DNA of 10,150 nt from UHGV virus genome UHGV-0195723. One strand, written 5' to 3'. Shown in pieces: positions 1,756 to 5,782 of the stretch. A model generated the notes under the pieces. It was not told where the DNA came from. It was given only the letters and a program-made list of their open reading frames with translations, and made no database searches. The DNA is from a virus. Every line of letters begins with the position of its first letter. Positions within the stretch are counted from its first letter, which is position 1. The position numbers and the translations under genes were made by a program.

Positions 1756-1781
1756 TGGTGCGGTTTCCCGCACTTATTTTT
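1756..1781 (+). terminator. Plus-strand stem-loop with T-run (terminator-like; alternatively a ssDNA origin or packaging hairpin)
   Basis: GTGCGG (1757-1762), loop TTTC, CCGCAC (1767-1772), then TTATTTTTT. It is one of three consecutive hairpins between 1717 and 1781. There is no obvious plus-strand gene upstream for it to terminate. Confidence 0.35.
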
Positions 1782-2082
1782 TGTACAGACCGTTTTTTTC
1801 GTTCTCTTCATAAGCTTTATTCACTCGATCATGCCGCCTTTTTTCTGCTTCTTCGTGCGCTTCGTAGAATCGAGTGTGATTCTCTGCCTCTAATGCTTTT
1901 CTTCTTATGTTGCTTACCACATCTTTAGCAGCATCTTTTGCATAATTATCAATAAGATAATTAACTATATCCGTCCATGCTATAGATGCCCCTGCTTCTT
2001 GGCTTGCATCGATAGCCAATCGTTCCATTTTGATTTTACGCTCGGCAGTAATTGCCATCGTAGTTCGCTTGAATAGTGCCAT
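1774..2082 (-). CDS. Hypothetical protein, 102 aa; candidate DNA-binding regulator (possible ribbon-helix-helix-like N-terminus, charged helical C-terminus)
   Basis: ATG at 2082-2080 with AAAGG about 12 nt upstream on the minus strand. It is divergent from the replication gene across a promoter/palindrome region, positionally like rstR-type repressors of integrative inoviruses. The fold assignment is a guess from the residue pattern only. Confidence 0.5.
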   Translation of the reverse strand: MALFKRTTMAITAERKIKMERLAIDASQEAGASIAWTDIVNYLIDNYAKDAAKDVVSNIRRKALEAENHTRFYEAHEEAEKRRHDRVNKAYEENEKNGLYKK

Positions 2083-2154
2083 CTCATTTCTAACCTTTGG
2101 GTGGAATCAGGATAGGTATCTTATCGTAGTGCATGTGCTTGCGTATCTACATGC

Positions 2155-2184
2155 TTGCATGCACTTGTATCTGTGTGCTATAAA
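2155..2184 (+). promoter_or_regulatory. Candidate sigma70 promoter for the replication gene: -35 TTGCAT (2155-2160), 18-bp spacer, -10 TATAAA (2179-2184)
   Basis: Hexamers read directly from the sequence. Two copies of the palindrome TGCATGCA (2156-2163 and 2202-2209) bracket the -10 element. Not verified experimentally. Confidence 0.4.
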
Positions 2185-2226
2185 TTTTTCATCGGTATAC
2201 GTGCATGCAGGCATAAGGACTTTGTC

Positions 2227-3342
2227 GTGTTCTACGATTGGTTGAGTATTGAACAGGATTTTGGCTACCAATTACCCATCCTTTCAGATGTGGCTTATCA
2301 GCGCATTCATCTTGATAGCGGTGAAGCCAGTGCCTTATCTCAACCAACCTTCCAGCACCGTGGATCTTTCTGTGATGTTGTCTCGATCTCGATCCGTGGT
2401 TCAGTGTTAAAAATGACTGGAAACCCTTCCCGCTGGGGACGTCTTGATAATCTCTTTGGCCTTCCAACTGTAGATACTTGTGTAATGGTATTTAATCAGA
2501 TCCTTACTGAACTGAAATTACCCTTATTTACTAAATGTACAAAATTGATGCCAGGACAATCTAAAGAAAATGAAAAGGCTCATTTAATAACTGATGGTGC
2601 ATTGATTAAAGAACTGCATATAACATCTAATAAATCAGTAGGGAAGGGTAATGAGGATGATTATATTTCTGGCCTTTCTACACAACCCTACAGAAATAGT
2701 GTTCCCCGACTACACTCCAATGGTAAGTCAGTTGACTGGCTTTCCAAAAAAGGTAATGTCAACCTTATATACCCAACAGTATATAACAAAGCTCATGAGC
2801 TTGAGTTGCATAGCCTTGCGAAAATTAAAAATAAATTCTCAGAGGAATCTAAAGAATTTAATTACATAATAGATATTATTAATTACTGCAAGGACAACGG
2901 CATTGTCAGGTTTGAGCAGAAATTAAAGTCTCGTTTTCTTCAAAAACAATCCCTGTGCTATTGGGGACTTTCTGATTATTCTTTGTTAAATAAGTTACAT
3001 TCTGAGTTTCTTGATCTTGATGAAAAGTTATCGGTGAATGCTATGGACTTTGAAACTATTAGTGAACATCTCATTAGTCGTGGTGTCGTTGATACAATTC
3101 GAGCTGCCAATACAACAGCCATGTATGCAATTCAATGGTTTCACGGTCATTCTTTTGATTTAAATAAAAGGCAAGTAAAACAGCATCGAGCAAGATTAAG
3201 AATGATAGGGATTGACATAGCTCAAAAATGTAATGTCTCCAAATTCTCTCCTGTTGTTGTGAAACAAACAAGGGAAATTAAAGTGACTGACTGCGTTATT
3301 CCATCATGGTATTTAAAACCATCACATTTGCGTGTGGCTTAA
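2227..3342 (+). CDS. Rolling-circle replication initiation protein, gene II-like (Phage_CRI family), about 371 aa
   Basis: Synteny as first gene of the Ff-type block. It carries a KASPAK-like block (SIRGSVLKMTGNPSRWG) and a VRFEQKLKSRFL block resembling M13 pII VRFEARIKTRYL. GTG at 2227 has AAGGA 8 nt upstream and gives an N-terminus (FYDWL) aligning with the pII N-terminus (MIDML). The ORF-track start (TTG 2155) lies inside the predicted promoter. Start codon is uncertain. Confidence 0.65.
   Translation: MFYDWLSIEQDFGYQLPILSDVAYQRIHLDSGEASALSQPTFQHRGSFCDVVSISIRGSVLKMTGNPSRWGRLDNLFGLPTVDTCVMVFNQILTELKLPLFTKCTKLMPGQSKENEKAHLITDGALIKELHITSNKSVGKGNEDDYISGLSTQPYRNSVPRLHSNGKSVDWLSKKGNVNLIYPTVYNKAHELELHSLAKIKNKFSEESKEFNYIIDIINYCKDNGIVRFEQKLKSRFLQKQSLCYWGLSDYSLLNKLHSEFLDLDEKLSVNAMDFETISEHLISRGVVDTIRAANTTAMYAIQWFHGHSFDLNKRQVKQHRARLRMIGIDIAQKCNVSKFSPVVVKQTREIKVTDCVIPSWYLKPSHLRVA
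3043..3342 (+). CDS. Possible gene X analogue (in-frame internal start within gene II, C-terminal 99 aa)
   Basis: In-frame ATG at 3043 preceded by GGTGA, by analogy with Ff pX. This is purely positional inference. Confidence 0.25.
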   Translation: MDFETISEHLISRGVVDTIRAANTTAMYAIQWFHGHSFDLNKRQVKQHRARLRMIGIDIAQKCNVSKFSPVVVKQTREIKVTDCVIPSWYLKPSHLRVA

Positions 3343-4145: not shown

Positions 4146-5438
4146 ATGAAAAGATTACTTCCGCCTTTATTATTCGCATCTTTCTTTGCTAATGCTGCAA
4201 CTGATGCCGAATGCATTGCAAAACCAGAATTTGAAGCATCTATGACAAACGTCTGGAAAGATGACCAGACATTAGATCGTTATGCTAACTACGAGGGCTG
4301 TTTGTGGAATGCTACTGGTGTTGTTGTTTGTACTGGTGACGAAAATCAATGTTATGGCACATGGAAGCCTATTGGCGCAGCTATTCCTGAAGGTGGCGGC
4401 TCAGGAGGTAATGAAGGAGGAGGGGGCTCAGGTGGCGGTGATGGTGGTAACACTGGAACAGATCCAAAACCCGGATATACATATGTTAATCCTCTAGATG
4501 GAACTTATCCGCCTGGTTCCGAACAGAATCCGAATAATCCCAATCCAACGCTATATGATGAACAACCATTAAATACATGGGTTTTTCAGGGGAACAGGTT
4601 TGTAAATAAACAAGGGGCATTAACCGTTTATACTGGTTCTGTATCTACAGGCACAGACCCCGTGGTAACTAAAATTCAATATACGCCAGTTTCCTCTAAA
4701 GCTATGTACGATTTATTCTGGAATGGTAAGTTTCGGGATTGTGCTTTCCATTCAGGATTCAACGAAGATCCTTTTGTTTGTGATTATCAAGGCCAGCCAT
4801 CAGAAATTCCTCAACCTCCAGTTAATGGCGGTGGTTCAGGTTCTGGCGGTGGCGGCTCCGGTGGTGGTTCCGGTGGTGGTTCCGGTGGTGGCGATGGTGG
4901 CTCCGGTGGCGGCTCCGATGGTGGAAACACTGGAGGTGGTGACGGTGGAGGTTCTGGCGGAGGCTCAGGGACCGGAGATTTCGATTATGACCGTATGGCT
5001 AAGGCCAACAAGGACGCCATGACGGAAGAATTCGATTCTTCTGCAATTCAGTCTGATATTTCTTCCTCTTTGGATGGAACAGTCCAGAACCTTACAGACT
5101 CTGTAAAAGGCCTATCTGACAGCGTTGGCGGTCTTCTTGGTGCTGGTACTCCTGTATCTCCGGAGTTTTCTGGTGCATCTGCTGATATGCAAAAAATTGG
5201 TTCTGGTGACAGTTCACCATTGCTGGATGCTTTTACTAAAGGAAAGTTATTTCCTTCATTACCATCGGCAAAACAATGTACTCCCTTTGTTTTTGCTGCC
5301 GGAAAGAAATATGAATTCACTATAGAGTGCAAATATATTGACATGTTTAAATCTGTATTTGCATTTATTCTTTATTTCTGGACTTTTGTTACCGTTTACG
5401 ATTCTTTTGCCGGGATACTCAGGAAAGGTAAGGAGTAA
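4146..5438 (+). CDS. gIII: Attachment (adsorption) protein pIII, 430 aa, with N1 and N2 domains, two glycine-rich linkers and a C-terminal membrane anchor
   Basis: N1 segment [40 protein letters not shown] and N2 segment [16 protein letters not shown]...[12 protein letters not shown]...[21 protein letters not shown] are near-identical to M13 g3p. The C-terminal domain (GDFDY...[12 protein letters not shown]...) and hydrophobic anchor are conserved. Confidence 0.95.
4826..4972 (+). repeat. Tandem GGTGGTGGTTCC-type repeats encoding the second Gly/Ser linker of pIII
   Basis: Two perfect 12-nt units at 4860-4883 flanked by degenerate copies. A shorter first linker lies at about 4391-4450. Confidence 0.7.
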
Positions 5439-5440
5439 TT

Positions 5441-5782
5441 ATGCCAGCGTTTTTAGGATTGCCTTTGCTTGCGCGTTTTATTGGGTGGCTAGCGGGGGCT
5501 TTAATCGGTTATTTTGCAAGGTTTATTACATTAGGCATTGCACGTATTGCACTTGCAATAACACTTTTTCTGGCCTTAATTGTTGGCCTTAACCAATTAC
5601 TGGTCTCTTATTTGTCTGATTTAGTTGCAGCATTGCCAGCAGAAATATCAGATGCAATATCTTATATTATCCCTTCAAATGCACTACCTTGCCTTTATGC
5701 AATCTTTTCATTGAAGGCTGCGATTTTTATATTTGATGTAAAAGACCGCATTATTGGTTATCTTGACTGGAATAAATCATAA
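5441..5782 (+). CDS. gVI: Minor coat protein pVI, 113 aa
   Basis: AGGAG RBS then ATG at 5441. Translation aligns along its whole length with M13 pVI (LSDxxAxLP, IPSNALPC, KAAIFIFDVK, YLDW). Confidence 0.9.
   Translation: MPAFLGLPLLARFIGWLAGALIGYFARFITLGIARIALAITLFLALIVGLNQLLVSYLSDLVAALPAEISDAISYIIPSNALPCLYAIFSLKAAIFIFDVKDRIIGYLDWNKS

Follow-up and report, generated by a model that had tools for sequence, protein, structure and literature searches.

The window, as the whole analyzed stretch of 10,150 nucleotides is called here, contains an If1-like filamentous (inovirus) prophage integrated at dif. Two sites upstream of its replication gene, gene II, designated O1 and O2, are probably operators of the RstR/ig-2 kind, to which a ribbon-helix-helix (RHH) repressor of 102 amino acids (aa) would bind and thereby repress gene II. 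The evidence for this assignment comes from the comparison of loci and from homology. The 144-bp region between the divergent gene for the 102-aa protein and gene II would then be an immunity/operator region of the type known as ig-2 in CTXphi. Switches of this type are well known, and the example described here is an ordinary one, albeit previously uncharacterized, which leaves the general understanding of phage repression unchanged. The prophage encodes gene II, gene V, coat genes, gene III, gene VI, gene I (Zot), and gene IV (secretin). The following features are located in and around the divergent region:

1774 to 2082, minus strand: gene for the 102-aa RHH-type, RstR-like putative regulator; the N-terminal approximately 55 aa are a predicted DNA-binding domain, and the C-terminal part is predicted to form a long helix
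2118 to 2123, minus strand: candidate leftward −10 motif TAAGAT of the putative promoter of the 102-aa gene, within the invariant block TATCTTA (2117 to 2123)
2129 to 2146, no strand assigned: O3, GTGCATGTGCTTGCGTAT, candidate weak third site just upstream of the leftward −10 motif
2151 to 2164, no strand assigned: O1, ATGCTTGCATGCAC, candidate operator with the core TGCATGCA at 2156 to 2163, overlapping the −35 motif of the gene II promoter and the beginning of its spacer
2155 to 2160, plus strand: putative −35 hexamer TTGCAT of the gene II (replication) promoter; CTTGyAT is at a fixed distance from the −10 motif in 25 loci
2176 to 2184, plus strand: extended −10 motif TGcTATAAA of the gene II promoter, within the invariant block 2171 to 2184; (TGn)TAnnnT followed by a T-run in all loci
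2201 to 2214, no strand assigned: O2, GTGCATGCAGGCAT, candidate operator with the core TGCATGCA at 2202 to 2209, at about +11 to +24 of the predicted transcript
2215 to 2219, plus strand: ribosome-binding site AAGGA for the start codon GTG 2227, kept in close relatives
2227 to 3342, plus strand: gene II, encoding the rolling-circle replication initiator (Phage_CRI and G2P_X_C), the gene proposed to be regulated

Palindromes and promoters upstream of gene II

The initial annotation had pointed to two palindromes embedded in near-inverted 14-mers, and this was confirmed. The sequence TGCATGCA occurs at the two positions listed and nowhere else in the 10,150 bases, where 0.34 copies are expected; 11 of 200 shuffles contained two or more. 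The 14-mers of O1 and O2 are reverse complements of each other with one mismatch, the sole such inverted pair within the window, and the offset between both sites is 46 bp. Among 500 dinucleotide shuffles, 36 contained an 8-bp palindrome that was repeated at a distance of up to 60 bp anywhere in the window, and 47 a 14-nt inverted repeat with up to one mismatch. These values correspond to a p of about 0.07 to 0.09, before the position of the repeats in the 144-bp intergenic region is allowed for, so that the pattern is weak when the window is considered alone. With such marginal statistics, it becomes convincing only through the comparison with relatives.

A third copy had been assigned to a position at about 2128 to 2146. 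The GTGCATG is indeed present there, a full copy is not. O3 has only GTGCATG and a TGCTTGC direct repeat in common, and because it was not recovered by a search with the 14-mer that permitted up to three mismatches, it is at best a degenerate half-site. Only ATGT...TGCGTA of O3 is kept in the Klebsiella relative. Clearer third copies at the equivalent position exist in five other loci (L012, L013, L010, L030, and L034).

It had also been stated that the palindromes overlap the −35 motif and lie just downstream of the −10 motif of a candidate replication-gene promoter, and this arrangement holds. The −35 and −10 motifs are separated by a spacer of 18 nt, transcription should start near A2191, and the position of the promoter is kept in 25 loci. 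A scan for consensus promoters did not call it, and its −35 motif matches the consensus at three of six positions. The end of O2 directly precedes the ribosome-binding site of gene II. The most likely start codon of gene II is GTG 2227, in agreement with the RefSeq annotation of the copy in Escherichia coli SW071618 and with the ATG of If1-like phages; at the DNA level, gene II is 76% identical to that of phage If1. On the opposite strand, relatives contain TATAAT or TATACT at the position equivalent to the leftward −10 motif. A structure in the leader RNA of gene II was also considered and dropped, since the fold of the 5′ leader was no better than that of shuffled sequences (z = +0.24).

The repeats may have no dedicated binding protein. 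They could be by-products of the −35 motif TTGCAT and of the local base composition, or sites for host factors. The marginal repeat statistics in the window are in agreement with a by-product, as is the inclusion of the −35 hexamer in O1. O2, however, contains no promoter element and nevertheless copies O1 in nearly every clade, with a clade-specific sequence. Host factors would leave unexplained why phages of related hosts contain different motifs, and a search for the LexA box CTGT-N8-ACAG with up to one mismatch gave no match between 2083 and 2226. An origin of the repeats without a dedicated protein is consequently judged very improbable, and operators for a phage-encoded protein are preferred.

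Repeats and replication genes in related loci

About 30 loci encoding homologs of the 102-aa protein were compared, which came from Klebsiella, Yersinia, Dickeya, Pectobacterium, Xenorhabdus, Providencia, Rosenbergiella, Izhakiella, metagenomes, and Vibrio. In every locus fetched, the RHH gene was divergent from and upstream of the replication module, and this included loci with differing Rep families, namely Rep_trans in L009, L010, and L013 versus Phage_CRI/G2P_X_C. For the comparison of the layout, the loci were anchored on the −10 element. About 25 loci had a common promoter, composed of a −35 motif CTTG(C/T)AT, a spacer of 17 to 18 nt, and (TGn)TAnnnT followed by a T-run. One repeat spanned the −35 motif and the spacer, a second one began about 14 to 17 nt past the −10 motif, and there was often a third repeat adjoining a TATAAT, TATACT, or TAAGAT on the minus strand. 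In most loci, the second repeat was offset from the first by 44 to 46 bp. Five close relatives shared four invariant blocks with the window, at 2150 to 2163 (O1), 2171 to 2184 (extended −10 motif), 2202 to 2209 (core of O2), and 2117 to 2123 (leftward −10 motif).

The two repeats of a locus have a clade-specific motif in direct or inverted orientation; the sequence varies from clade to clade, and both copies vary together. When 14 clade representatives were analyzed, the repeats matched the other repeat of their own locus better than those of other loci, with a mean of 10.7 compared to 8.4 bases (permutation p = 0.00025). The conservation of the motif in related prophages, which had been proposed as a check, thus applies to the layout with two copies about 45 bp apart, while TGCATGCA itself and the inverted form are clade specific. 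The pattern GCAT-N4-GCAT occurred 7.4 times per kb in these intergenic regions compared to 0.06 times per kb elsewhere in these loci, an enrichment of about 120-fold for a pattern that was derived after the fact from these very loci. The repeats and the putative β-strands of the respective RHH proteins were as follows:

TGCATGCA: window and Klebsiella; KRTTMAITAE
TGCATACATGCAT: L012, L006, L008, L005, and If1; KRTTMAI(T/V)AE, in L005 KRTTVAIVAE
TTGTATAwGTG: Xenorhabdus; KRTTMAIVAE
TGAATACATGAAT: L010 and L030; KRTTISI(N/S)QE
CTTGTAT: L011; KKYTSIRISE
TCATGA: L032; KRKSYNVPNE
CTCATGAGTTCA, three copies: L034; KRATYNVTEE
GCATGCAATAT: pre-CTX; GDTTVRINEQ

Changes in the repeats broadly but imperfectly parallel those in the putative β-strand, and all of these correlations are confounded by shared ancestry. 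The Xenorhabdus loci, for instance, have the same KRTTMAIVAE as L006, yet their repeats are of the TTGTATAwGTG type.

Alternatively, the repeats may be elements of a replication origin that bind Rep, or that bind an RHH accessory factor aiding Rep in nicking at a nearby plus-strand origin. TraY and TraM help relaxases at oriT; the closest structural matches of the 102-aa protein include the relaxosome accessory protein TraM, and one Dickeya homolog is labeled TraY by UniRef. The plus-strand origin and the pII-binding repeats of Ff phages are similarly placed, just upstream of gene II. The sequence of an Ff-type origin should covary with the Rep family, but that of the O1/O2 repeats does not. 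The same motif and the same β-strand exist in L012 with its Phage_CRI Rep and in L013 with its Rep_trans Rep, and the motif differs between the window and L034, which possess the same Rep type. Because the motif follows the RHH gene instead of the Rep family, this explanation was rejected as unlikely to a high degree. Moreover, the sites fall exactly on promoter elements, the homologous rstR genes are placed and annotated as repressors, and If1 propagates despite an IS200/IS605 element between its RHH gene and the operator/promoter region. The non-coding element at 1720 to 1769, described below, is also a more conserved candidate for an origin.

The 102-aa protein and the proposed switch

The 102-aa open reading frame matched a single family, phrog_2503, which has no known function. 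It has 24 close homologs, and in a library of 1.84 billion proteins the family comprised 98 clusters at 50% identity, most members of which are 60 to 90 aa long. The N-terminal 55 or so residues are strongly conserved (KRTTMAItAERKlKlERLAIDAS...WTDIVNyLIDNYAKDA). An AlphaFold model of the monomer (pLDDT 87) shows an extended N terminus, a helix from residue 12 to 29, and a long helix from residue 35 onward. This is the order of an N-terminal β-strand and two helices within about 45 to 50 aa that characterizes RHH proteins, and structure comparison assigns an RHH fold to the model. A Foldseek comparison of the full-length monomer model with the PDB gave no matches. ParG was the only recurrent sequence match in Pfam and PDB, and it remained below the threshold, with 10 of 22 members, a best E value of 0.0041, and a cutoff of 21.4 bits; the match to PDB entry 1p94 had an E value of 0.055, also below the threshold.

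A search of phage genomes by tblastn with the 102-aa protein recovered If1 itself and rstR of a pre-CTX phage and of some CTXphi records. The rstR allele matched with an E value of 3e-6 and 42% identity by tblastn, with an E value of 9e-14 by BLASTP, and with a probability of 98.7% by hhalign. The homologous allele is solely the “environmental” allele of Vibrio pre-CTX/CTXphi (KR063268 and GQ466611), not RstR-ET. RstR-ET, which has been studied well, belongs to the helix-turn-helix proteins and has no sequence relation to the 102-aa protein. Further homologs are the “RstR-like” genes of VAI1/VAI2. Judged by their primer-encoded termini, MKKKYTSLRV... and ...QKTDLKR (PMC11509585), the product of rstR6 may resemble the family, too; when the phage collection was searched with a chimeric query composed of these primer ends, rstR6 was not recovered. 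No paper in the limited literature library used linked RstR or inovirus repressors of the 102-aa family with an RHH fold.

The window agrees with RstR modules in having a divergent gene that is homologous to rstR, and type-specific repeats over the rep promoter. As in CTXphi and pre-CTXphi of Vibrio cholerae, a small repressor gene is divergent from the gene of the rolling-circle initiator, rstA in these phages, repeated allele-specific operators overlap the promoter in a short intergenic region, and the prophage resides at dif with an attP in the form of a single-stranded DNA (ssDNA) hairpin. The pre-CTX rstR allele is a true homolog of the gene for the 102-aa protein, and its ig-2 (L035, 1348 to 1480) contains three GCATGC-containing repeats, CGCATGCGTGCATG, AGCATGCAATAT, and GCGCATGCAATATGCG, around the rstA promoter. 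The annotated start of this rstR appears to be 21 codons too far upstream. Each of eight rstR alleles repressed its own ig-2 promoter in lux reporter assays (PMC11509585), and RstR binds as a dimer of dimers according to Kimsey and Waldor (2004), as cited in PMC8402870. In contrast to the window, CTXphi also uses LexA, and it differs in host and phage genus, since the window is If1-like and from Enterobacterales. The 102-aa protein, moreover, possesses a C-terminal helical extension of roughly 45 aa that distinguishes it from the RstR of CTXphi.

Other inovirus repressors, FpsR of Shewanella phage SW1 and Pf4r of Pseudomonas phage Pf4, act at the promoter region by the replication or structural operon (PMC3411601, PMC4762005, and PMC8402870), although Pf4r is a protein of the c-repressor type. 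TraM of pED208 resembles the model of the 102-aa protein, with an N-terminal RHH domain and a C-terminal helical oligomerization domain, but is a conjugation accessory factor with another motif. ParG of plasmid TP228, the sole sequence-level match, functions in partition and represses parFG, likewise with another motif. ParG reads 4-bp boxes at a spacing of 8 bp, and these resemble GCAT-N4-GCAT, which is a lead only. The small RHH repressors Arc/Mnt of phage P22 and CopG of pMV158 bind pseudo-palindromic operators over promoters; Arc acts on divergent promoters, and CopG controls rep of a rolling-circle replicon. They agree with the proposal made here in being small RHH repressors at promoter-overlapping operators. 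In contrast, they have no detectable sequence relation to the 102-aa protein, they use single operators instead of two sites 46 bp apart, and copG is cotranscribed with repB, not divergent from it.

Taken together, the shared architecture, the covarying repeats, and the homology to rstR argue for the repressor operators that had been suggested for this region of a lysogen. The protein binding to O1 and O2 is most likely the product of the 102-aa open reading frame, as indicated by its homology to rstR and its linkage to the sites. The residues around KRTTMAITAE would form the two-stranded β-sheet with which dimers of the RHH repressor enter the major groove at the GCAT-containing boxes. Since O1 covers the −35 motif and the upstream part of the spacer, a repressor bound there would exclude RNA polymerase from the gene II promoter. 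O2, located 46 bp downstream, may add cooperative occupancy or act as a roadblock, and the long C-terminal helix may join the dimers at both sites; since 46 bp does not correspond to an integral number of helical turns, this spacing gives simple in-phase looping no obvious advantage. The weak third site by the leftward −10 motif may contribute to an autoregulation of the 102-aa gene. As a result, the rolling-circle initiator would be silenced in the dif-integrated prophage, along with phage replication, and a sequence-specific superinfection immunity would be conferred as well. In this scheme, we infer binding, direction of regulation, stoichiometry, cooperativity, and the transcription start site.

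Prophage ends, cargo slot, and phage If1

The prophage is flanked by hipA and, at its right end, an exact E. coli dif site (8507 to 8534). The left end at 1194 to 1287 contains two inverted dif-like sites, GGTGCGCATAA...TTATGTTGAAA and its partner, and as ssDNA this region folds into a forked hairpin of −30.6 kcal/mol (z = −6.7). This is the layout of a CTXphi-type attP hairpin for single-strand integration by XerCD, present here in an E. coli-type If1-like phage. A near-identical prophage exists in E. coli SW071618 (L002, 9100 to 19180) as a head-to-tail tandem at dif, and CTXphi requires such a tandem arrangement for virion production from the chromosome. A dif-integrated, tandem-forming lifestyle means that the replication gene must be repressed.

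A non-coding cluster of three small hairpins is located at 1720 to 1769, immediately beyond the 3′ end of the RHH gene. Its identity to If1 5052 to 5101 is 92%, compared to 71 to 79% in the neighboring coding DNA, so that it is better conserved than this flanking DNA. Its last stem contains compensatory changes relative to If1. The cluster is a candidate for a replication origin or a packaging signal.

The 14-mers of O1 and O2 may also function in the packaged or replicating ssDNA, pairing as a 14-bp stem with a 36-nt loop that would serve as an origin of the minus strand, as a hairpin mimicking a promoter, or for packaging. Promoter-like hairpins serve as the minus-strand origin in Ff phages. 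In L025, the bases flanking both palindromes were changed symmetrically, from C to T and from G to A, and the hairpin on the plus strand reached −13.2 kcal/mol with a z of −2.26, which is, however, only moderately better than shuffled sequences. The inverted relation is lost in L012, L013, and Xenorhabdus, where 5 to 7 complementary bases remain (not significant) and direct repeats are kept at the same positions instead. The structures at 1194 to 1287 and 1720 to 1769 are, moreover, far stronger and better conserved. A structural role of the paired 14-mers is therefore considered extremely improbable, and an occupation of O1 and O2 by the repressor remains the preferred explanation.

The 113-aa open reading frame at 1285 to 1626, downstream of the RHH gene, had been named together with the 102-aa protein as a possible partner of the operators. 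It has no family match, and in SW071618, which contains the same operator region and the same 102-aa gene, the slot is occupied by a gene for a 64-aa excisionase-like protein (L002, 9192 to 9386). Other relatives have a gene for a 108-aa protein (Klebsiella), a gene for a Fic-domain protein (Yersinia), or unrelated genes in this position, and If1 has none. The slot looks like an insertion point for cargo (moron) genes. Because its gene is swapped in relatives, the 113-aa protein was dropped as an operator partner. The same variability bears on the idea that the 102-aa RHH protein could be an antitoxin paired with the downstream gene, with the repeats as the autoregulatory operator of this pair. 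A partner gene that is unrelated between loci and absent from If1 does not agree with such a pair, nor does the distance between both genes of about 110 to 150 nt with the conserved hairpin element, whereas the genes of typical pairs overlap. In addition, the rightward gene II promoter contains two of the three sites. On the grounds of gene variability and spacing, a toxin-antitoxin pair was rejected as the least probable explanation of the repeats.

If1 (L001) encodes an RHH protein as well, in an unannotated gene at 5119 to 5310 on the minus strand, inside the “major intergenic region.” An IS200/IS605 element (Y1_Tnp and OrfB_IS605) is inserted a few base pairs upstream of the ATG of this gene, with tnpA at 5388 to 5831 and tnpB at about 5853 to 7086, the latter with an apparent frameshift (entire region, L001 5119 to 7130). 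The element parts the RHH gene from the operator/promoter region, which still adjoins gene II. If1-like genomes free of the element are present in IMG/VR (L026 and L027). A transposase in If1 had already been noted (PMC4632390), without mention of its position relative to a repressor gene.

E. coli, Klebsiella, Yersinia, and related genera frequently contain prophages of filamentous phages at dif; these prophages carry variable cargo genes, and their silencing is largely unstudied beyond CTXphi and Pf. If the assignment of O1 and O2 is correct, the repressor and the operators of the If1-like group have been identified, these phages are tied to one class of rstR alleles of cholera phages, and a simple, testable specificity code for superinfection immunity is provided. 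The position of the IS200/IS605 element would also point to a possible reason why If1 behaves as a freely replicating phage. As a more tentative extension, to which we give somewhat less than even chances, the 102-aa protein may represent an unrecognized RHH class of “RstR” immunity repressors in CTX-like vibriophages and If1-like enterobacterial inoviruses. The operator specificity of this class, with GCAT, GAAT, GTAT, or TCAT boxes, an 8-bp spacing, and a CATG core, would be predictable because a few β-strand residues would determine it. If1 would then be a natural derepressed variant, since the IS200/IS605 element cuts its repressor gene off from the promoter/operator region. The annotation of gene II of If1, moreover, omits about 150 nt; the homologous start codon ATG occupies 7316 to 7318, and the reading frame looks broken.
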